This document shows positions 1 through 12,296 of a stretch of 12,296 bases of DNA, piece by piece (the stretch's first letter is position 1; every line of letters begins with the position of its first letter). The translations under genes and the position numbers were made by a program. This DNA comes from a virus (Duplodnaviria; Heunggongvirae; Uroviricota; Caudoviricetes). The notes under the pieces are model-generated. The model made no database searches. It saw only the letters and a program-made list of their open reading frames with translations, and was not told the DNA's origin. The stretch lies in the IMG/VR virus record IMGVR_UViG_2541047680_000005, one strand, 5' to 3'.

Positions 1-1027
1 CGGTATTCCCTTTTCCTTCTGTGGCTGATTTCCGGTCATTATCCAGTGCGCAGGTGATTTTTGCCGCCGGGTACATGTTTACCAGTTGTTCCACAACATG
101 AACCATGTTGTTAGCGGATACAGCGACAACCACAGCGTCAAAGCGTTTATCTTTTTTCGTGGCAAGCCAGATGGATGCACCAGTAGCAAAACCTTCTGTA
201 ACAGCGATGTTTTGCGCCCCTTTTAGCTCACCGATAACAAAGCAGGCACCGACGAAATCGCCGCTGGTTACGGCGCTGGTCTGGTATTTTCCACCTTGTT
301 TGTCGATTCGCTGCCAACCCACAATACGACCATCGTAACGACCGTCCAGGTGAGCCAGAGGGATAGCCATATACGTGGTTGGCCCCCTGCTCCATTTTGC
401 GCTGTCGTGACTGGTCACGCGACGCACATCACACGAATTAAAAACGTCACGAATACCTTTTTTAATCGCATATGGCCACGAGCCGTCTTCTGCAGGAGCA
501 TGTTCCCACGCGCTGTGAAATGCCAGCCATCCCAGCAAACGTTCATGGTCCATTTGGTTGTTTTTCAGGTCATTAATTCGTTTTTGTTCTTCACGGCGAC
601 GACGTGCTTCGGCCTGACGTTCTATTCTTGCCCGTTCTTCTTCCGGTTGTGCGACCACGGTCGCATTATTCCGCTGTTGCTCACGGCGATATTCAGAAAA
701 CAGGAAGGAGAAACCGCTCCATGAGCCAGCATCGCTGCCTTTATGGACGAAGTTAATGAACGGATAATCAATCCCTTTGCTGTGTTCCAGCCGGGAGTAA
801 ATTTCTACGCGTCCTTTGAGGCTCTTCTCGAGAGCTTCTGGAGATGTTTTATTGTATGAAGAGTAACGCTCAACACCCCCGCGAGGGTTGAGTTGGATGT
901 TGTCGGAACAGGCAGGCCAGTTGATACCAGCCATCTGTGCCAGCTCGGTTAGTTCATCCCGTGCTGCTTCAATTAGCGAGAACGGATCGCTGCCAAAGCG
1001 ATCCGCATAGAAATCGTTTAATGTCAT
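1..1027 (-). CDS. Replication primase (Toprim / EGYATA-type, RepA-like or P4-alpha-like), N-terminal ~342 codons; the 3' end lies beyond the left window edge
   Basis: Hand translation of the minus strand from ATG at 1027..1025 (MTLNDFYADRFGSDPFSLIEAARDEL...) stays open to position 1. It is absent from the ORF track because no stop lies inside the window. Contains VTEGFATGASIW (EGYATA-like primase motif) and ITCALDNDRKS (DxD, Toprim-like). Track ORFs 105..338 and 296..724 on the plus strand are its antisense shadow. Confidence 0.7.
   Translation of the reverse strand, partial: MTLNDFYADRFGSDPFSLIEAARDELTELAQMAGINWPACSDNIQLNPRGGVERYSSYNKTSPEALEKSLKGRVEIYSRLEHSKGIDYPFINFVHKGSDAGSWSGFSFLFSEYRREQQRNNATVVAQPEEERARIERQAEARRRREEQKRINDLKNNQMDHERLLGWLAFHSAWEHAPAEDGSWPYAIKKGIRDVFNSCDVRRVTSHDSAKWSRGPTTYMAIPLAHLDGRYDGRIVGWQRIDKQGGKYQTSAVTSGDFVGACFVIGELKGAQNIAVTEGFATGASIWLATKKDKRFDAVVVAVSANNMVHVVEQLVNMYPAAKITCALDNDRKSATEGKGNT
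649..666. repeat. 18-bp palindrome copy 1 (GTGCGACCACGGTCGCAT), candidate ParB/SopB-type centromere site
   Basis: Core TGCGACC-AC-GGTCGCA read directly; lies inside the primase coding sequence, where it encodes ATVVAQ on the minus strand. Confidence 0.6.
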
Positions 1028-1076
1028 TTTTTAGCCATTCCATGCGAATTATGTTTTTTCGGGTTGAAAAAATCCG

Positions 1077-1143
1077 CAGGAGCAGCCACAATAAACGCAT
1101 CTTGAATTGACGGAATCCGTCGCGTTGTTGTGGCTGCTTCCTG
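1077..1143. repeat. Long-range inverted repeat CAGGAGCAGCCACAA / TTGTGGCTGCTTCCTG (15-16 bp arms, one-base bulge, ~36-bp loop) in the primase upstream leader
   Basis: Read directly: 1077..1091 is the reverse complement of 1128..1143 except for one extra T. Lies 50-115 bp upstream of the primase start codon. Confidence 0.5.
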
Positions 1144-1178: not shown

Positions 1179-1272
1179 CGTCTTTTTTCTGCTGCTGTAA
1201 CCTGAGTCAACCCACAGAACATATGCCCTGCATTAAACCAGATTTACAGCAAACAATAAACCCCGTATTAAG

Positions 1273-1869
1273 TCATCTACCCTCAACCATGAATGATTTG
1301 ATCGTTCCGACTATTTGGTGAACAAATTCAAGATCGCTTTTCCTGAAGATGGCGCGTTGTGAGTTTGTTCCATCCAGATAGTAATTTTCATCATCAAAAC
1401 GGGCCAGGCGCTGGATAGTGATATTTCCTGCAGTATCACGAACCAGAACATCCTCGCCGGGGACCAGTTCCAGCGCAGAATCGACCAGGAGAAAATCGCC
1501 TGGCTGATAGTTTCCCTGCGTAAGATTGCTGATAGTTAACGCATACACAGTATTGCGCTGGCTGATGAATGGCAGGAATCGCTCAGTATTTGGAACCTGT
1601 CCCGGCTTCCACTCTTCATCCGGCCCACTTTCAGTTGTGCCAATAACAGGAATGCGATCAGGGTCATATTCTGTCCCATATAGCACCCAATGCACTGGCT
1701 TGCGTAAGCACTTAGCCAGGGCAATACCTATCTCCAGTGACGGCATTACGTCGCCACGTTCTAAGTTTTGGACGCCTGCTATAGAGATATCGACAGCCTC
1801 AGCAACTTCTCGCAACGTCAGCTTCATCTCTAAACGGCGTGCTTTCAGTCGTTCGCCTCGTGTTTTCAT
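1273..1869 (-). CDS. CI-like prophage repressor (N-terminal HTH, C-terminal LexA/S24-like domain, probably non-cleavable)
   Basis: 198-aa ORF. N-terminus LTLREVAEAVDISIAGVQNLERG is a classic XRE-type HTH. C-terminus PGDFLLVD...GNITIQRL aligns by eye with the LexA / lambda CI S24 core, but Gln replaces the catalytic Lys and no Ala-Gly cleavage site is evident. Divergent from the cro-like gene with operators between. Confidence 0.85.
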   Translation of the reverse strand: MKTRGERLKARRLEMKLTLREVAEAVDISIAGVQNLERGDVMPSLEIGIALAKCLRKPVHWVLYGTEYDPDRIPVIGTTESGPDEEWKPGQVPNTERFLPFISQRNTVYALTISNLTQGNYQPGDFLLVDSALELVPGEDVLVRDTAGNITIQRLARFDDENYYLDGTNSQRAIFRKSDLEFVHQIVGTIKSFMVEGR

Positions 1870-1891
1870 AGCTTAATCATAAATGATCTTC

Positions 1892-1907
1892 TTATAGCTG
1901 GCTATAA
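1892..1907. promoter_or_regulatory. Operator O1: perfect palindrome TTATAGC-TG-GCTATAA
   Basis: 7-bp perfect inverted arms read directly; sits in the repressor/cro divergent intergenic region. Confidence 0.65.
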
Positions 1908-1917
1908 AATTTATTTA

Positions 1918-1933
1918 TTATAGCTGGCTTTAA
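1918..1933. promoter_or_regulatory. Operator O2: TTATAGC-TG-GCTTTAA (one mismatch to O1)
   Basis: Same half-site as O1, 26 bp downstream. Confidence 0.6.
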
Positions 1934-1940
1934 ATGCGAT

Positions 1941-1956
1941 TTATTGCTTATAATAA
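1941..1956. promoter_or_regulatory. Possible operator O3 (degenerate, TTATTGC-TT-ATAATAA) overlapping a TATAAT -10-like hexamer
   Basis: Degenerate copy of the O1 half-sites 23 bp after O2; TATAAT at 1949..1954 lies immediately upstream of the cro-like ATG at 1961. Confidence 0.35.
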
Positions 1957-1960
1957 CCGC

Positions 1961-2182
1961 ATGAAACCAGAAGAACTTATTCGCCACTTTGGCAGTGTAG
2001 AAAAAGCAGCGGCTGGGGTAGGTGTAACACCCGGTGCTGTTTACCAATGGTTAACCGCTGGAGAGATTCCTTCATTGCGGCAAAGTGATATTGAAGTTCG
2101 TACTGCTTACAAGCTGAAGAGTGACTTTACAACTCGGCGGGTAAAGCAGTCGATTAAGGAGAGCCGTAAGCGTGGAGCTTGA
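1961..2182 (+). CDS. cro: Cro-like DNA-binding protein
   Basis: Track ORF 1934..2182; from Met10 the protein MKPEELIRHFGSVEKAAAGVGVTPGAVYQWL resembles P22 Cro as I recall it (MYKKDVIDHFG...ISDAAVSQW). Start at 1961 is preferred over 1934 on that alignment; neither has a strong SD, so the message may be nearly leaderless. Confidence 0.8.
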   Translation: MKPEELIRHFGSVEKAAAGVGVTPGAVYQWLTAGEIPSLRQSDIEVRTAYKLKSDFTTRRVKQSIKESRKRGA

Positions 2183-2882
2183 GTATATACGCAGCTGCGT
2201 CTCCACGGCATTGGCTGATATTCATTATCGCCAGCGTGGCATCCTAGAGGTCCAGCTTGAGCAGATGCGTCTAGGCAGATCAGGACGCTTTAACAATAAA
2301 CCAGTCCGGTCAATCAGTGTAGGTGATGATAACTCATACGAAGTGTCCGTTCCTGCTGAGCCGGTTAGATTCCACCAGGGGAAAACATTTAAACAATCAT
2401 CAATGTTGCTCACTGATATTGATTTTCAGAGCGCCAGCTGGCGCAGGGCTATTGGTCAGTTGAATAACGAGGAATCAGCCTGGCTTTATTATTGCTACGG
2501 ATGCAAGCCTGATTACAACAATGATGTGATTGTTTGTCAGTGGTTATGGCTTGATTTTCTGGTTGCTCATTCGGGGGGCGGCTTTAAAAAAATGAAGGCC
2601 TCCACGAAAAAAGCCATGCGGAAATTGATTTATTACGCGGCACAGCAGGTTAAATCAGAACTTACGTGTGCTGAGGCAGTTGATGAGAGAGAACAGGACA
2701 GGCATCTGAGTTTTCTACTGAATATATCTATTGATAGCTGGAGACAAGATTATAAAGAACGCTGGCTTTTAATTAAGTCGCGATGTCTGAGCTTAAATCG
2801 AACTGCATTATTAAATGCGGCGGAGAAGCGCAGTGAAATCATCAAACGCCATCGGGCAGGAAGTGCCATTCTGCCTTTGTAA
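2172..2882 (+). CDS. Hypothetical early protein (236 aa) immediately after cro; possible regulator
   Basis: GTG start at 2172 with AAGGAG 11 nt upstream, overlapping the cro stop. No motif I can assign with confidence. Position matches where cII or Q-like regulators sit in some temperate phages, but that is positional only. Confidence 0.6.
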   Translation: MELEYIRSCVSTALADIHYRQRGILEVQLEQMRLGRSGRFNNKPVRSISVGDDNSYEVSVPAEPVRFHQGKTFKQSSMLLTDIDFQSASWRRAIGQLNNEESAWLYYCYGCKPDYNNDVIVCQWLWLDFLVAHSGGGFKKMKASTKKAMRKLIYYAAQQVKSELTCAEAVDEREQDRHLSFLLNISIDSWRQDYKERWLLIKSRCLSLNRTALLNAAEKRSEIIKRHRAGSAILPL

Positions 2883-3135
2883 ACAAGTTATGTTCAGGAA
2901 ACCGTCGAAGCCAGAATTAAGGTATTCGGGGGTAAGAAATGAATATGTTATCTGGTGTCCAACTTGTGGTTACAGGACACGACCAGATAGTAATAAGCAG
3001 TCTGTAATTGCCGATTGGTATTTATCAAATCAGCCAGGTAATAAGCATATAGAAAATCTTTGGATTAAGCGTTACTTGGAAATCAGAGAGGGTGCGACCG
3101 TGGTCGCACAAGAAAATGAAAATAACGCCATTTAA
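2815..3135 (+). CDS. Small Cys-rich (CxC...CxxC) putative zinc-ribbon protein
   Basis: Track ORF. Contains FCLC and CPTCGY. Start is uncertain: ATG 2815 overlaps the upstream gene by 68 nt, and the alternative ATG at 2890 lacks an SD and would drop the first Cys pair. The last 15 codons include one copy of the 18-bp palindrome. Confidence 0.4.
   Translation: MRRRSAVKSSNAIGQEVPFCLCKQVMFRKPSKPELRYSGVRNEYVIWCPTCGYRTRPDSNKQSVIADWYLSNQPGNKHIENLWIKRYLEIREGATVVAQENENNAI
3092..3109. repeat. 18-bp palindrome copy 2 (GTGCGACCGTGGTCGCAC)
   Basis: Perfect 8-bp arms with GT centre; at the 3' end of ORF 2815..3135, where it again encodes ATVVAQ. Confidence 0.6.
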
Positions 3136-3942: not shown

Positions 3943-4361
3943 TGGCAAAGGCTTTTACACCAGAACAGAGGGAAGAACTGAATAAACAAATTGTGGAACT
4001 CGTGCGCCTGAATGGACGAGGAACGGTTAGACAACTTGCGGATGAAACTGGTATTAGCCGGTGTGCTGTTAGTCGTTTATCAAGAGAGCTTGCTGCCAGT
4101 GGTGATTTGTATATCTCTGGCTCCGGGATATTTCTGTCTGCACAAGCACGCAAGGACTGGCAAAACGCCCGTAAAAAACTATCAAGAGTAAAGCCGAAGA
4201 AATCGGTAGTGGTTGATCCAGACCTTATCTGGTCATTACCTGACGGAGAAATACGTCGTTACGACAGGCGCTTGAACATGATTTGTCACGATTGCCGGAA
4301 AAGTGAAGTTATGCAGCGTGTGCTGGCTTTTTATCAGGGAAATTTACAGGAGGTGGCGTAG
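3942..4361 (+). CDS. Putative helix-turn-helix DNA-binding protein
   Basis: ATG overlaps the upstream stop (TAATG). N-terminal TVRQLADETGISRCAVSRLSRELAASGDL is HTH-like. Confidence 0.65.
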   Translation: MAKAFTPEQREELNKQIVELVRLNGRGTVRQLADETGISRCAVSRLSRELAASGDLYISGSGIFLSAQARKDWQNARKKLSRVKPKKSVVVDPDLIWSLPDGEIRRYDRRLNMICHDCRKSEVMQRVLAFYQGNLQEVA

Positions 4362-4651
4362 TGAATATCGACACCACGATAACGATCGATACGGCCCTAA
4401 ATATCGGTCTGGCACTTCTCGGTTGGTTTTACATCATGTTCAGCGCAGGGAAGTGGGCGGCCACTGTTTTTCTAAAACAGTGGAAAAAACGGCGCAAACA
4501 GGAGCTACGCCAGAAGGCATTAGAAGCGTTCTATGACGCATTTGAACTTAACAGCATTGAACCAGGCACAACAGTCAGAGTGGCAACCAAAGGTGATCTG
4601 ATGATCATGATGTTCCGACAGGAGAAAGCAGAGAAAGGGGAATCCGCATGA
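4361..4651 (+). CDS. Small membrane-anchored protein (one predicted TM helix)
   Basis: GTG start overlapping the upstream stop. Hydrophobic segment LNIGLALLGWFYIMFSAG is followed by a basic stretch KQWKKRRKQELRQK. Confidence 0.55.
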   Translation: MNIDTTITIDTALNIGLALLGWFYIMFSAGKWAATVFLKQWKKRRKQELRQKALEAFYDAFELNSIEPGTTVRVATKGDLMIMMFRQEKAEKGESA

Positions 4652-5307
4652 AATTTTCCAAATTTTCTGAGTTGGTGAATCGTATCTTGTCCAACAAACA
4701 CAGCCAGCGTTGCGATATGGATGTAACAATCGTTATTCATTCGCCTGGCAGCATTGGTTCAACACCCTCAGTTGAGGTTCAGTCAATTCACGCTGGTTTT
4801 GATTGGGATTCCGGGAAAGTGCTGATTTTCCCAGCACAGCCACTGACCACGCTAACACCAGAACAGATTACTGATATTACTGATAGTGTGCGCAAAGGTC
4901 AGTCCTGGCACGCATATCAGGAATACAAGAAGCATAAAGAGCAGTTGGAAAAATTGTCGATTGAACTGGATGCTGCAAAACAGCGCGTAGCAGAACTGGA
5001 AGCCAAACCTGTAAGCCAAACTTACAAGTTAACTTTTGAGCAATGGCTGGAACAGCAGCATGACAAAATTGATGTTGATTGTGGATGTGTAAGTACTGAA
5101 ATGTTTATGCACTGGATAAGGGTCGCGTATGAGGCTGGCAACTCTCCGGTAACTCCGGATGGTCATGTTCAGTTTTCTGTTTCACTTCCTGCAGCGTTTG
5201 GTGGAGATAAATATTTTATTGATGGTGTATTTCAACCTTTGAGATATGAGCGTGACTGTGAAAGGGCGGTTGTGGCCGCTGGCGGTGTAGTTAGTTGGGT
5301 TAAGTAA
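4648..5307 (+). CDS. Hypothetical protein (219 aa) with central coiled-coil segment
   Basis: ATG overlaps the upstream stop (ATGA). Central KEQLEKLSIELDAAKQRVAELEAK is coiled-coil-like. No assignable catalytic motif. Confidence 0.65.
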   Translation: MKFSKFSELVNRILSNKHSQRCDMDVTIVIHSPGSIGSTPSVEVQSIHAGFDWDSGKVLIFPAQPLTTLTPEQITDITDSVRKGQSWHAYQEYKKHKEQLEKLSIELDAAKQRVAELEAKPVSQTYKLTFEQWLEQQHDKIDVDCGCVSTEMFMHWIRVAYEAGNSPVTPDGHVQFSVSLPAAFGGDKYFIDGVFQPLRYERDCERAVVAAGGVVSWVK

Positions 5308-5322
5308 TTTTCAGGAGGATTT

Positions 5323-5649
5323 ATGGCGCTGACACCGGCAGAACGGCAAAGGAGACGCAGGGAACGGTTGAAGAAGGAAGGCACATCAAGACGGGACTGG
5401 ATTCTAGAACCTGACGAGTTACGTATGTTGGGGGAAATTTGTGTATTGCGTAGACCAGGGCGAGTTCCATATTCGGAGAACGAAGTCATTGGTTTGCTGA
5501 TCAGGAAAAACTATAAGGAGCTGCAGAAGCAGCTATCTACTACTTGCCCGCGATGTGGTCAAAAAATGCCTGTTTCAGAATGCATTTTTGATGGCGAAGG
5601 GTCATGCCACCTTACAACCACGAGGCTGAAACTTGCGCTCAAAGTGTGA
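5323..5649 (+). CDS. Hypothetical protein with Arg-rich N-terminus and C-terminal Cys cluster
   Basis: Good SD (CAGGAGG) 6 nt before the ATG. N-terminus LTPAERQRRRRERLKK; C-terminal CPRCGQ...C...C. Confidence 0.6.
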   Translation: MALTPAERQRRRRERLKKEGTSRRDWILEPDELRMLGEICVLRRPGRVPYSENEVIGLLIRKNYKELQKQLSTTCPRCGQKMPVSECIFDGEGSCHLTTTRLKLALKV

Positions 5650-5667
5650 CTGGTCACGGAGGGATAA

Positions 5668-5910
5668 ATGGATAAAAAGGCATTGCTTTTTGAAATGATA
5701 CGAAAACGGAGCGAAAAGAGCTTTTCTGATGGTGGTGATGGGTTTGTTTTCGCTTCGATGCTTGCTTTTGATGTTGGGTTAAATAGCAGAATTGTTAAAA
5801 GGATGCTTGATTCTGCTGTCCGTACTGGACTTCTTGAGAAAGTTGATCGTGGCATAGGGAGAGAGCATAAGTATCGGGTCACACAGCAGTTTACGCAGTT
5901 AATTCATTGA
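5668..5910 (+). CDS. Hypothetical small protein (80 aa), possibly winged-helix
   Basis: SD GGAGGG 5 nt upstream of the ATG. No diagnostic motif. Confidence 0.55.
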   Translation: MDKKALLFEMIRKRSEKSFSDGGDGFVFASMLAFDVGLNSRIVKRMLDSAVRTGLLEKVDRGIGREHKYRVTQQFTQLIH

Positions 5911-5992
5911 AAATTGACCGTAAAGTTTGAGTTTTATCCTGTAATTTTATACAGTATAAAAAACCTTTTTTAGTTAAATGGTATGAGATTTA

Positions 5993-6196
5993 ATGTCTGA
6001 AGCAGCCGTATCAACTCTTGAACAACTCGATTCAAATTTGAGAGATATTGACGCCGTTCTGGATCTGGTTAGCGTCACCCTGGCTTCTCCAGAAGCCAGC
6101 CTACATATTGGTGAGGTTTCACGACTCATCAACATGTCGCGAGAGATTGCCCAGCATTGTCAGAAAACTATCGCTGTTGAGCGTTCACATCATTGA
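5993..6196 (+). CDS. Hypothetical small acidic protein (67 aa)
   Basis: Preceded by an AT-rich intergenic region with TTGACC at 5914..5919 and TATAAA-like hexamers at 5948..5961. Weak SD. Convergent with the antitoxin gene. Confidence 0.4.
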   Translation: MSEAAVSTLEQLDSNLRDIDAVLDLVSVTLASPEASLHIGEVSRLINMSREIAQHCQKTIAVERSHH

Positions 6197-6238
6197 TGCA
6201 CACCCCGCCCTTCTGGACGGGGTAGTAAAAGAGTCTAA

Positions 6239-6526
6239 TTAATAAACAGCGCGAATATCGATGGTTGCGCCGCAGGCATGAGCATATTTAGCCAAAGTTT
6301 TCATACTTGCCCCTAAAGGATTGCTTTCCAGGCGGCTGATGGCTGACGGTCGCAACCCCATTCGTTCAGCCAGAGCTGATTTCGTTAAACCTGCTCTTTC
6401 CCTCATTTCGTATAACATTTCGACCATCTCCAGCTCTTTGTCGGCCTCTTCATATCCTTTGACGGCTTCTGGAGTGTTGAGGAGTTTTTCTTTTACTTCG
6501 TTAAACGGGATGCCTTTCGCTTTCAT
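6239..6526 (-). CDS. HigA-like antitoxin (XRE-family HTH)
   Basis: 95 aa, with HTH segment LTKSALAERMGLRPSAISRLE. The start overlaps the toxin stop (ATGA at 6526) and the gene lies downstream of the toxin, the HigBA-type order. Confidence 0.8.
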   Translation of the reverse strand: MKAKGIPFNEVKEKLLNTPEAVKGYEEADKELEMVEMLYEMRERAGLTKSALAERMGLRPSAISRLESNPLGASMKTLAKYAHACGATIDIRAVY

Positions 6527-6837
6527 CAGTTCATCTCCTTCAGGCGAGTTCTGGCGATTTCGATAGCCTTCACCGGTGTTTTCTGTGTCTTTTTTACAAA
6601 TGCATGCAATAGATAAATTTCGTTACCAGTCGCGTAGGCGTACAGCGTTCTTGCGATGTTTTTATCCCCTACTCGTAGTTCAAAAAGCCCTCCACCTATT
6701 ACACGGCTATGGGGCATCTTCAGTTTGTTGCCTTCCTTCTCCAGTCGCTCAATTAATCTGGTCATGCGACCTCGCAAATCATCTGGTAGTTCAAGCAGTT
6801 CATCCAGTGCTGCAGGGTGGGTTATCACGTTAAACAT
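6526..6837 (-). CDS. RelE/ParE-superfamily toxin of the HigB / phage Gp49-like group
   Basis: 103 aa; size, toxin-first order and overall sequence resemble the Gp49-like (DUF891) killer proteins as I recall them; the family is named after phage N15 gp49. Confidence 0.75.
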   Translation of the reverse strand: MFNVITHPAALDELLELPDDLRGRMTRLIERLEKEGNKLKMPHSRVIGGGLFELRVGDKNIARTLYAYATGNEIYLLHAFVKKTQKTPVKAIEIARTRLKEMN

Positions 6838-6895
6838 ATTATAGCCTCCATAGCCATAAAATACACCAAAACAAGAAAAAAGCGCAAATTAAAAA

Positions 6896-6913
6896 TTTCA
6901 CTAAAAAGTGAAA
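6896..6913. promoter_or_regulatory. Inverted repeat TTTCAC-TAAAAA-GTGAAA in the toxin-antitoxin promoter region (candidate operator)
   Basis: 6-bp perfect arms read directly, ~60 bp upstream of the toxin start codon on the minus strand. Confidence 0.4.
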
Positions 6914-7002
6914 AATAACACTGGATGTGTTCGTTTGGCAGAGTTACAGTTCGTGTCATTGAGGGGCAATAACCCACTAACTATATGAATTTGGAGGATA
7001 TT

Positions 7003-7224
7003 ATGAATTATCAAGGTAACGAAAAAATGCGCGACGACGTTGCGGAGATAGCTAACGAACTGTATGAGTTGTGGCAGAAGGTTGAACGTTTCGAAAAGGA
7101 ATATGGTTTCAACAGTACCAACCTGGCAGACCGACTGGCTGGTCGCTTAGTTGGGACTATGGGGCCAAAACTGGCTGAGTTGAACCGCTTTATGGCTGAT
7201 GTTGATTTCCAGTTTCAAGATTGA
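7003..7224 (+). CDS. Hypothetical protein (73 aa)
   Basis: GGAGG at 6993..6997, 5 nt before ATG 7003 (track ORF starts at the earlier ATG 6985, which lacks an SD). Divergent from the toxin-antitoxin operon. Confidence 0.55.
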   Translation: MNYQGNEKMRDDVAEIANELYELWQKVERFEKEYGFNSTNLADRLAGRLVGTMGPKLAELNRFMADVDFQFQD

Positions 7225-7237
7225 TTAGAGAGGCGTT

Positions 7238-7465
7238 ATGAATATTAATGAAATTCGTGGAAATATGACTGAAGCGGCCCTGAGTGTGGAATGTGTTATG
7301 CGTGGATACCCACGCATTTCCCTGAAAGAGTTAAGCGAAGCCTGTTTTTTGAGTCAAGCTGCCGTTGAATTTATCATCGAACAGATGATCTGTTTTGGGG
7401 TTGCAAAGCGTAGCGGGTCTGGTCGATATTCTTTGACCGATGAATATAAGCAGGCAACTTTCTAA
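7238..7465 (+). CDS. Hypothetical protein (75 aa), possible small DNA-binding regulator
   Basis: SD GAGAGG 6 nt upstream. Directly followed by a palindrome copy and a structured noncoding region. Confidence 0.55.
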   Translation: MNINEIRGNMTEAALSVECVMRGYPRISLKELSEACFLSQAAVEFIIEQMICFGVAKRSGSGRYSLTDEYKQATF

Positions 7466-7470
7466 AAACT

Positions 7471-7488
7471 GTGCGACCACGGTCGCAC
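7471..7488. repeat. 18-bp palindrome copy 3 (GTGCGACCACGGTCGCAC, arms extend to 10 bp)
   Basis: Begins 6 bp after the stop of gene 7238..7465, at the head of the structured noncoding region. Confidence 0.6.
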
Positions 7489-7573
7489 AGCACAAAAACG
7501 AAAAAGCTTGGCAAAATTACGGTTTTTAGTTATTGTTTTGTTAAGTTGGGTTTTTTGTACCCAACAGCCAACA

Positions 7574-7597
7574 AGCCGCCTTTATGGCGGTTTTTTT
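7574..7597 (+). terminator. Intrinsic terminator (short GC stem CCGCC / GGCGG, loop TTTAT, then T7)
   Basis: Stem 7576..7580 / 7586..7590 followed by TTTTTTT at 7591..7597; downstream of the small-gene pair and upstream of the methyltransferase. Confidence 0.5.
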
Positions 7598-7614
7598 GTG
7601 CCTGAAAAGTGGGC

Positions 7615-7640
7615 GCAGGACAAGTTGCAGCTTGTCCTGC
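7615..7640. repeat. Perfect 10-bp inverted repeat GCAGGACAAG-TTGCAG-CTTGTCCTGC
   Basis: Read directly; no T-tract follows, so not a classic terminator. Candidate protein-binding site or RNA stem-loop. Confidence 0.5.
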
Positions 7641-7684
7641 GGTCAACCCATGCCAGAGCTATAGGCTGAACCTAAAGCCCACCC

Positions 7685-7698
7685 GCGATGCGCATCGC
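7685..7698. repeat. Perfect 14-bp palindrome GCGATGCGCATCGC
   Basis: Read directly; contains the ATG at 7688 that the ORF track uses as the methyltransferase start. Confidence 0.45.
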
Positions 7699-7732
7699 CG
7701 GGTTAGCTTACCCAGGCAAAAAAATAATAGCT

Positions 7733-8809
7733 ATGTTCAAAACCACTAATATTCATGGCGCGCAACTCGTTTGCGCAGATTCTCTGCAATTTATCAAAAC
7801 CATCCCTGATAACTCGGTCAATTTGATTGCAACAGACCCACCATACTTCGGCGTAAAGGCTAACGCATGGGATAACCAGTGGGATAGCGATGCTGACTTT
7901 TTGGGGTGGATTGATGAATTTTTGGCAGAATTTTGGCGGATATTGGCCCCTAATGGCAGCCTGTATATGTTTACCGGCTCTCGCCTTGCGTCAAAAATTG
8001 AATTATTAACTCGCGACCGTTTCAATGTTCTGAACCATATCATTTGGGCTAAACCCAGTGGTATGTGGCGCGGTTGTCATAAAGAAAGTTTAAGGGCTTA
8101 TTTTCCTGCCACTGAAAGAATATTATTTGCAGAGCATTACGGCGCGTCAGGTTATGCTAAAGGTCAGTCAGGTTATGCTTCAAAATGTGCAGATTTAAGA
8201 AAAAATATTTTTTCTCCACTAATTGATGCTTTTTCGCTGGCTCGCCGTCAGTTAGATATATCAGCCGCAGACATTAATTCAGCAACAGGAAAGCAGATGT
8301 GTTCGCACTGGTTTTCTTATTCGCAGTGGCGGCTTCCATCATTAAGTGATTTTAATAAACTATGCGAATTATTTCGCAGGAAGGCAGATTCACTCGGTGT
8401 CCCGTGTCCATATCCTTTTAATGTTGATTATTCAGAACATGAAAAGCGTTATAGCGATCTGAAATTGCGTTATGAGGAAGTAAAGAAGCAGTATGATGAT
8501 TTGAAGGCTCAGTATGAAAATTTGCGCCGCCCATTTCATGTTACTGCTGATGTACCTTATACCGATGTATGGGAGTTTCCTCCTGTGCAATATTATCCTG
8601 GCAAGCACCCATGTGAAAAACCTGCAGCGATGATGGAACATATTATAAAAAGTAGTTCCCGCTCCGGAGATATCGTTGCCGATTTCTTTATGGGATCAGG
8701 CTCTACTATTAAAGCCGCGCTGAAGTTAGGTCGTCAGGCAATCGGTATTGAGATTGAGGGTGAACGTTATCTTCAGACAGTTGATGAAGTGAAAAAGTTA
8801 TTTGAGTAA
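7733..8809 (+). CDS. Orphan beta-class DNA methyltransferase (N6-adenine or N4-cytosine)
   Basis: DPPY (motif IV) near the N-terminus in NLIATDPPYFG and FFMGSGST (motif I, AdoMet binding) near the C-terminus; this motif order defines the beta class. A coiled-coil-like insert (YSDLKLRYEEVKKQYDDLKAQYENLRR) lies between them. Start ATG 7733 chosen so DPPY sits ~35 aa from the N-terminus; the ATG at 7688 is possible. No restriction endonuclease partner is visible. Confidence 0.8.
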   Translation: MFKTTNIHGAQLVCADSLQFIKTIPDNSVNLIATDPPYFGVKANAWDNQWDSDADFLGWIDEFLAEFWRILAPNGSLYMFTGSRLASKIELLTRDRFNVLNHIIWAKPSGMWRGCHKESLRAYFPATERILFAEHYGASGYAKGQSGYASKCADLRKNIFSPLIDAFSLARRQLDISAADINSATGKQMCSHWFSYSQWRLPSLSDFNKLCELFRRKADSLGVPCPYPFNVDYSEHEKRYSDLKLRYEEVKKQYDDLKAQYENLRRPFHVTADVPYTDVWEFPPVQYYPGKHPCEKPAAMMEHIIKSSSRSGDIVADFFMGSGSTIKAALKLGRQAIGIEIEGERYLQTVDEVKKLFE

Positions 8810-10510: not shown

Positions 10511-10528
10511 GTGCGACCGTGGTCGCAC
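10511..10528. repeat. 18-bp palindrome copy 4 (GTGCGACCGTGGTCGCAC)
   Basis: 20 bp after the stop of the DUF4406-like gene. Confidence 0.6.
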
Positions 10529-10730: not shown

Positions 10731-10748
10731 GTGCGACCGTGGTCGCAC
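10731..10748. repeat. 18-bp palindrome copy 5 (GTGCGACCGTGGTCGCAC)
   Basis: 24 bp upstream of the start codon of gene 10772..11632; with copy 4 it brackets a ~200-bp noncoding stretch. Confidence 0.6.
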
Positions 10749-12205: not shown

Positions 12206-12249
12206 TCCATTACAAAAGCCATTCGCTACTGAGTGCTGATGAATCCCCT

Positions 12250-12271
12250 AATGATTTTGGTAAAAATCATT
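12250..12271. repeat. AT-rich palindrome AATGATTTT-GGTA-AAAATCATT
   Basis: 9-bp perfect arms read directly, 45 bp after the stop of the last gene. Confidence 0.45.
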
Positions 12272-12296
12272 AAGTTAAGGTAGATACACATCTTGT

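Follow-up and report, generated by a model that had tools for sequence, protein, structure and literature searches.

The 12,296-nt stretch of viral DNA analysed here (the window; IMG/VR record IMGVR_UViG_2541047680_000005) carries in its left quarter the genes repA, cB, cro and Q, in an order and orientation (repA<-cB<- OR ->cro->Q) that match phage N15. The 5' part of the primase/replicase gene repA occupies positions 1..1027 on the minus strand, as placed by mapping CDS 4314..8309(-) of phage PhiR46_1 onto the window, and cB, coding for a prophage repressor of 198 aa, lies at 1273..1869 on the same strand. On the plus strand, cro (1961..2182) codes for a lytic repressor of 73 aa of the all-alpha P22/N15 Cro type (Pfam P22_Cro, E=1.7e-22), and its 3' end is overlapped by the late antiterminator gene Q (2172..2882, plus strand; Pfam Phage_antiter_Q, E=2e-84), the two following each other as genes 39 and 40 do in N15. 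The upstream in-frame ATG at 1934 had been proposed as the start of cro, but N15 Cro (PDB 2HIN) aligns with the protein from residue 1 (E=2.2e-32), which places the start at 1961. The start of CB was set at MKTRG because this is conserved in all relatives and the start annotated for N15 CB (MIKG-), which lies four codons further upstream, is not in frame in the window. An ORF antisense to cB (1526..1876, plus strand), which is labelled 'unknown' in the N15 annotation, is probably non-coding.

A megablast search of phage records matched the window over 100% of its length, at 99.3% identity, to Escherichia phage PhiR46_1 (PV340565.1; host E. coli ECOR13), and window coordinates are those of PhiR46_1 minus 7282. 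The annotation of PhiR46_1 includes telL and telR ends, ParA/ParB and a 4-kb primase gene, and the element is therefore an N15-like linear phage-plasmid. The telomere phages N15 and phiKO2 matched the left quarter, repA-cB-cro-Q, with ~75-76% identity in the same search. The region is the counterpart of the primary immunity region (immB) in an N15-like linear phage-plasmid of E. coli. N15-like repA-telN loci made up the majority of the loci surveyed by Silpe et al. 2023 (PMC10432266).

Operators and promoters around cB

Three 16-bp operators lie between cB and cro. OR3 (TTATAGCTGGCTATAA, 1892..1907) is a perfect 7-2-7 palindrome of the form TTATAGC-NN-GCTATAA and is identical to OR3 of N15 and phiKO2, OR2 (TTATAGCTGGCTTTAA, 1918..1933) has 1 mismatch to the palindrome and differs at 2 bases from N15 OR2 (TTATACCTAGCTTTAA), with which it aligns, and OR1 (TTATTGCTTATAATAA, 1941..1956) aligns with N15 OR1 (TTATTGATTATAATAA) with one base different. 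Sites with no more than 1 mismatch are expected 0.01 times by chance in the window, and none of 200 shuffles reached two. OR1, with 4 mismatches, is not significant alone, and it occupies the exact position of OR1 in N15. The start-to-start spacings of OR3, OR2 and OR1, 26 and 23 bp, are the same as in N15, and the CB-binding sites OR3, OR2 and OR1 of the N15 immB sequence (U45242) align base for base with the three sites in the window. In N15, CB footprints cover OR1-3 and OL1-2 (PMC4488713, Hammerl 2015), and the three sites are the counterparts of these footprinted operators. Among the 27 distinct OR sequences of 53 loci, OR3 hardly changes and OR2 and OR1 show good conservation, in contrast to the variable spacers. 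Within the 24 distinct N15-like OR sequences OR3 is unchanged in all but one, where a single central base is altered, and more distant CB relatives have co-varying palindromes.

The sequence-only reading had described a tripartite operator with one perfect and two degenerate copies at spacings of 26 and 23 bp. The three OR sites and their spacing proved to be real, but the full set is five, as two further operators, OL1 and OL2, are found in the window downstream of cB and in front of repA. OL1 (ATATGCCCTGCATTAA, 1221..1236), upstream of repA, aligns with OL1 of N15 (GTATAGATCGGATTAA) and of phiKO2 (TTATAGACCGCATTAA), and OL2 (TTACAGCAAACAATAA, 1244..1259) aligns with the second N15 OL site (TTATAGTCAGCAATAA, U45242 237-252). 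Both keep the TA-N10-TA motif that, in the accounts of Hammerl 2015/2016 summarising and extending Lobocka 1996, is given for all five 16-bp operators (PMC4488713, PMC4997575). OL2 has 3 mismatches to the palindrome and by homology overlaps the -35 of the repA promoter. In N15 and phiKO2, repA is transcribed less and plasmid copy number falls when CB is bound at OL (PMC4488713, PMC4997575), and by analogy the repA promoter in the window would be under CB control through OL1 and OL2. This control could be weaker here, since OL1 and OL2, which differ from the N15 sites at 6 and 4 positions, have diverged further from the palindrome than those of N15.

Binding to these sites has been measured in phiKO2, whose CB binds all five operators, OR1 most strongly, and the N15 operators too, whereas its Cro binds OR3 only (PMC4997575); by homology, OR3 would be the sole Cro-bound site in the window. 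A consensus scan placed a leftward promoter-like site for cB at 1876..1904 on the minus strand (TAGCCA-17-TATGAT), a position that matches the cB promoter P2 of phiKO2 (PMC4997575). Its -35 lies inside OR3, so that Cro at OR3 would shut off cB. The TATAAT -10 of the cro-proximal rightward promoter (1949-1954) lies inside OR1, and the corresponding -35 is placed inside OR2 by the N15 annotation. The leftward and the rightward -10 hexamer each end 7 nt short of their ATG, and the cB and cro mRNAs are therefore probably leaderless; leaderless mRNAs have been reported for PY54 (PMC4488713).

The C-terminal domain of CB

CB is 78% identical to N15 CB (gp38) over its full length and combines an N-terminal HTH_3 domain with a C-terminal domain that is S24-like and appears catalytically dead. 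The helix-turn-helix described from the letters alone was recovered by Pfam HTH_3 at residues 8-61 (E=3.3e-11). The LexA/S24-like character of the C-terminal domain also held, though the Peptidase_S24 match (PF00717) is partial, covering CB residues 99-171 and profile positions 29-97 of 116, and at 21.3 bits it does not reach the gathering cut-off of 23.3 bits. The structure was modelled with confidence by AlphaFold2 from 25 family members (pLDDT 88.7); the top Foldseek matches of this model in the PDB are lambda CI, LexA and UmuD (3bdn, 8gmu, 3k2z, 1jhe), and by these matches the C-terminal domain has the S24 beta-fold. Searches of PDB sequences with phmmer and a family profile were convincing over the HTH only; the S24 matches were weak (E 0.02-0.8) and were not used for residue mapping.

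Residues were mapped instead with three MAFFT alignments (A1, A3 and A8) of CB and its relatives against E. coli LexA, UmuD, lambda CI and P0054, a relative with an intact dyad. The CB segment NITIQRL stands opposite VTVKRL of LexA, FTVKKL of UmuD, FTFKKL of CI and VMVKRL of P0054, and in every alignment Gln153 of CB falls at the position of the catalytic Lys (LexA K156, CI K192), as the sequence-only reading had judged by eye. Across 52 related viral loci, position 153 is Gln in 49, Leu in 2 and Gly in 1, and never Lys; N15 CB has the same Gln. The Ala-Gly cleavage site, which had also been reported as not evident, is replaced at the homologous bond: VIGTTES-GPD of CB aligns with LVGRVAA-GEP of LexA, LVQC-GFP of UmuD, VQA-GMF of CI and NTQA-GPD of P0054, so that the counterpart of the scissile bond is Ser81-Gly82 instead of Ala-Gly (or Cys-Gly), with Ser-Gly or Thr-Gly in relatives. 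A loss that had gone unnoticed is that of the GxSM serine motif, which is absent in CB when aligned with LexA, UmuD, CI and P0054, the segment reading TISNLTQGN, and which was found in the segment 109-125 in 0 of the 52 related loci. Opposite the catalytic Ser (Ser119) stands Thr117 (A1, A3) or Leu116 (A8), a one-position ambiguity of gap placement in a serine loop that is 1-2 residues shorter in CB than in P0054; at the Ser-equivalent position N15 has Ile. An ungapped by-eye alignment from the GD motif gave Asn115 as the Ser counterpart; it was set aside for the MAFFT alignments, in which P0054 serves as anchor.

Judged by these alignments, the Ser/Lys dyad of CB is gone and not merely shifted. 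It could be supposed that CB still cleaves itself with substitute residues, for instance with Ser114 or Thr117, hydroxyl residues near the catalytic Ser position, as nucleophile and a cut at Ser81-Gly82, which would make induction lambda-like; the S24 fold has been kept, and so has the cleavage-loop motif PVIGTTxxGPD, which is almost invariant and in which Gly82 is invariant. We regard this as scarcely credible, because position 153 offers neither Lys nor another general base in any of the 52 related loci and because the candidate nucleophiles vary: at position 117, 7 loci have Thr, 8 that otherwise show 99.5% identity have Ala and the N15-like ones have Ile/Val, and Ser114 is Gly in N15. Moreover, the N15 repressor, with the same Gln, was not proteolysed after ciprofloxacin/SOS induction in the gel of Silpe 2023 (PMC10432266, Fig. 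1b), and in CB of N15 and phiKO2 the RecA cleavage site and the essential Ser and Lys 'were not detected' (Hammerl 2016, PMC4997575). The missing Lys, Ser motif and Ala-Gly bond in CB, together with the behaviour of its 78%-identical N15 homologue, thus support the earlier proposal of a non-cleavable repressor, and CB would be unable to cut itself.

A LexA box and an antC-like gene 4 kb from cB

With self-cleavage lost, induction had been expected to follow another route, such as an antirepressor, and a candidate for a LexA-controlled antirepressor gene is present in the window. The LexA box was searched for with the half-site pattern CTGT-N8-ACAG in place of the 20-mer consensus, to which no match with 3 or fewer mismatches exists in the window. 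The pattern occurs only once in the window, at 5939-5954 (CTGTAATTTTATACAG), where it forms the perfect core of a plus-strand 20-mer (TCCTGTAATTTTATACAGTA, 5937..5956) that agrees with the consensus at 16 of 20 positions, having 4 mismatches; with an AT-only spacer, 0.03 such sites are expected by chance. The box lies in the promoter region of a 67-aa ORF (5993..6196, plus strand) that starts 38 nt after the end of the box and that we consider an antC-like gene for a putative SOS-induced antirepressor.

The CTGT-N8-ACAG pattern has 3 sites in N15, one in the tape-measure gene with a GC-rich spacer, one before the umuD-like gene 26 and one at 39564-39579, in an unannotated gap between genes 47 and 48, which is followed by a 70-aa ORF (39619-39831); the AT-rich sites of N15 are only those before the umuD-like gene and the antC-like ORF. 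The 67-aa protein is 56% identical to the product of the 70-aa N15 ORF (E=6e-25) and its gene has the same neighbours as in N15, gp46- and gp47-like genes and a toxin-antitoxin pair. It also matches PHROG 10889 'anti-repressor' (E=6e-8), is 42% identical in BLASTP to the PY54 'antirepressor AntA' and is related to gp31 of the N15 immA anti-immunity operon. The PY54 homologue was missed by tblastn with AntC and was found with a small HMM and BLASTP. In a protein homologue search, AntC matched nothing but near-identical proteins without a name; neither Pfam nor NCBIfam has a model for it, and its database copies are all called 'hypothetical protein'. A previous study cited in two later papers identified AntC as a LexA-controlled antirepressor whose expression starts N15 induction (Mardanov & Ravin 2007, cited by Lemire et al. 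2011, PMC3121763, and Hammerl 2015, PMC4488713). On the evidence of its LexA box, its position and its homology to proteins annotated as antirepressors, N15 ORF 39619-39831 is likely to be antC.

N15 and phiKO2 have the LexA box at the corresponding place, with conserved half-sites and diverged flanks. In 49 of 53 viral contigs, a CB relative is accompanied by an AntC homologue with a LexA box, 3.5-6 kb away on the opposite strand, and in these 49 loci the LexA 20-mer begins 56-61 nt ahead of the antC start codon. Of the 4 exceptions, two are loci that end early on the antC side.

It might still be that the 67-aa ORF does not inactivate CB, and that induction depends mainly on another factor (for example the AntA-like paralogue that the same element has in its immA-equivalent locus, outside the window) or that the element lacks SOS inducibility. 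PhiR46_1 has a second AntC/AntA-like gene (L001:2311-2544(-)), a separate system of anti-immunity, immA, is known in N15 (PMC4488713), and the 67-aa protein is unnamed in databases. We find this improbable, as the immA-like paralogue at L001:2311-2544 has no LexA box upstream and its N15 counterpart belongs to the separate, RNA-controlled anti-immunity system, whereas the pair of LexA box and antC goes with CB at a fixed distance in 49 of 53 loci, its half-sites are conserved against diverged flanks, and antC expression starts induction in N15 according to the work cited above. The most likely agent that switches CB off is therefore this small antirepressor under SOS control, whose gene lies 4 kb from cB.

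Proposed induction route and related switches

What the analysis shows directly are the sequence features with their homology to N15 and phiKO2, the replaced residues and the joint occurrence of CB, LexA box and antC; on these we base our explanation of the whole region by the immB and AntC system, a reading to which we give a probability of about 0.9. DNA binding, lack of cleavage, control by LexA and binding of AntC to CB would hold in this element by analogy with N15 and phiKO2 experiments. In the lysogen, CB dimers or oligomers on OR3, OR2 and OR1 would block the rightward cro and Q promoters and keep the lytic and late genes silent, while CB on OL1 and OL2 over the repA promoter would limit plasmid copy number. 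With neither the Ser/Lys dyad nor the Ala-Gly bond left, CB should not respond to RecA by cleavage, and DNA damage would be sensed indirectly: cleavage of host LexA would free the box at 5939-5954, the 67-aa AntC would be made, and AntC would bind CB non-covalently and remove it from the operators. Inactivation of CB would then allow expression of Cro and Q, with Cro binding OR3, which overlaps the cB promoter, to shut off repressor synthesis, and Q leading to late transcription.

For N15 and phiKO2, the literature already describes the layout of the switch, the repressor that is not cleaved and the antirepressor route under SOS control, and the element itself has been deposited as the sequenced phage PhiR46_1. 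The finding is a correct rediscovery of the N15 immB/antC design from raw sequence and has little weight as a discovery. Its value is more in annotation. The AntC-like protein is present on >1000 E. coli contigs, everywhere as a 'hypothetical protein' and without a Pfam or NCBIfam model, and the RefSeq name of N15 gp38, 'LexA family transcriptional regulator', suggests that it cuts itself, which it does not. If prophage inducibility is predicted from an S24 match, as some pipelines do, the whole N15-like group of phage-plasmids would be misclassified.

P0054, which is 42% identical to CB, keeps Ala-Gly, GDSM and Lys. Its locus is telomere-phage-like, with a cI-cro-Q-methylase-lysis array and a PY54-type operator (GTATAGCTAGCTATAC). 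The 9 kb sequenced rightward of the P0054 repressor, on a partial contig, contain no LexA box and no AntC-like ORF, the latter also by a recheck with an HMM, and a search of the viral contigs found no P0054 relatives. In all N15-like relatives the dyad is lost and the LexA box and antC are present. The comparison with this one partial contig hints that loss of self-cleavage may be coupled to acquisition of antC. The picture of a coupling is not clean, since PY54 combines a CI that bears the Lys with an AntA behind a LexA box. We suggest, quite tentatively, that the CB clade records a move of SOS sensing from repressor to antirepressor, and that the PVIGTTxxGPD loop of the dead domain may have been kept as a surface for AntC docking or oligomerisation.

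Among known systems, N15 resembles the window in CB, in Cro (~86% identity over 63 residues), in its two OL sites before repA, in the Gln at the Lys position and in the location of the LexA box and the antC homologue, which are flanked by the gp47-like gene and the toxin-antitoxin pair. It differs in its Ile at the position where CB of the window has Thr (or Leu), in an AntC that is only 56% identical and in the genes between Q and gp46, which are mosaic. The Klebsiella phage phiKO2 shares five 16-bp TA-N10-TA operators, an identical OR3 and a CB that lacks the cleavage site, Ser and Lys (PMC4997575), and its AntC homologue, Gp47, is encoded behind a LexA-like box; its host differs, and one LexA half-site has ATGT for CTGT. 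PY54, a telomere phage of Yersinia, has the same cI/cro layout and an AntA operon behind a LexA box, but a single operator with G...C ends and a CI that is ~34% identical and keeps Lys at the catalytic position.

Lambda CI, LexA and UmuD have the S24 beta-fold in common with CB, in a two-domain repressor, but Ser, Lys and Ala-Gly are all replaced in CB, and its Pfam S24 match is sub-threshold. In lambda, as in the window, cI and cro genes diverge with three operators between them. The lambda operators are 17 bp, however, against 16 bp here, Cro of the window would by homology bind OR3 only, and the second operator set lies at PL-N in lambda and at a plasmid replication gene in the window. Phage 186, with Tum, and the Gifsy phages, with GfoA/GftA, follow the same logic of a non-cleavable repressor and a small LexA-boxed antirepressor gene outside the immunity region (PMC3121763); their repressors come from other families, and the likeness of their antirepressors to AntC noted here is one of logic.

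Putative antirepressor genes and their association with the repressor

PhiR46_1 (L001), the Escherichia phage 99.3% identical to the window, harbors beyond the region covered by the window a second AntC/AntA-like gene (2311-2544(-); HMM E=5.5e-9), which adjoins telN in the immA-equivalent locus and shows no LexA box. The corresponding paralogue in N15 is gp31 and, given this second gene and its counterpart, AntA and AntC appear to be members of one protein family. Among the viral contigs holding relatives of the prophage repressor CB (L019-L033), loci whose CB is 100% or 99.5% identical to that of the window code for an AntC that is 100%, 98.5% or just 76-78% identical to the window protein. 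The variability of AntC alongside a nearly constant CB indicates that repressor and antirepressor genes are reassorted between elements. In the window, antC is convergent with a toxin-antitoxin pair in which the antitoxin is of the HTH_3 type and the toxin is Gp49/HigB-like (6239-6526 and 6526-6837, both on the minus strand), the counterparts of which in N15 are genes 48 and 49.

P0054, a CB relative with 42% identity encoded on contig L072, has Ala-Gly, GDSM and Lys all intact, and the operator of this contig is of the PY54 type, GTATAGCTAGCTATAC. Neither a LexA box nor an AntC-like ORF could be observed in the 9 kb to the right of the P0054 repressor.

Annotation of cro and of the cB-repA region

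In the PhiR46_1 annotation, cro begins at an ATG at 1934, between the operators OR2 and OR1 (window 1934-1960). The deposited gene is probably 9 codons too long, because the sequence of the N15 Cro crystal structure has as its first residue the one encoded at window position 1961. On the other side of the operators, a 116-aa ORF runs antisense to cB (1526-1876(+)) and matches an N15 ORF annotated as 'unknown' inside cB (U45242 580-942); it is probably not a gene. The repA leader contains a promoter-like site, TTGAAA-17-CACAAT (1064-1092(+)), whose N15 counterpart is 'Pinc', a promoter annotated there for a putative antisense RNA. The leader also contains a strong stem-loop terminator with a 16-pair stem followed by a T run (1143-1178), which corresponds to the repA-leader terminator of N15, a bidirectional one.

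Partition-like sites, probable late promoter and IS insertion

Five places in the window (649-666, 3092-3109, 7471-7488, 10511-10528 and 10731-10748) carry an 18-bp palindrome, GTGCGACCACGGTCGCAC, or an inverse nearly identical to it; the palindrome is identical to sites annotated in phiKO2 as 'putative plasmid partitioning site'. These copies would represent parS/sopC-like centromere sites scattered over the linear plasmid prophage. The segment at 7489-7600, located after the parS-like site at 7471-7488, is conserved with N15 both at the annotated late promoter (-35/-10) and at the hairpin terminator beyond it, GCCGCCTTTATGGCGGTTTTTTT. It is probable that this segment is a Q-dependent late promoter with a read-through terminator, preceding the methylase and lysis genes.

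The match to PhiR46_1 ends at 12235, and the last ~65 bases of the window (~12229-12296) form the terminus of an IS10/ISVsa5-like element of the IS4 family, which indicates that this copy of the phage-plasmid bears an IS insertion absent from PhiR46_1. The same terminal sequence is present in >3000 plasmids, often in several copies per record, and in R478 it adjoins an ISVsa5 transposase gene.
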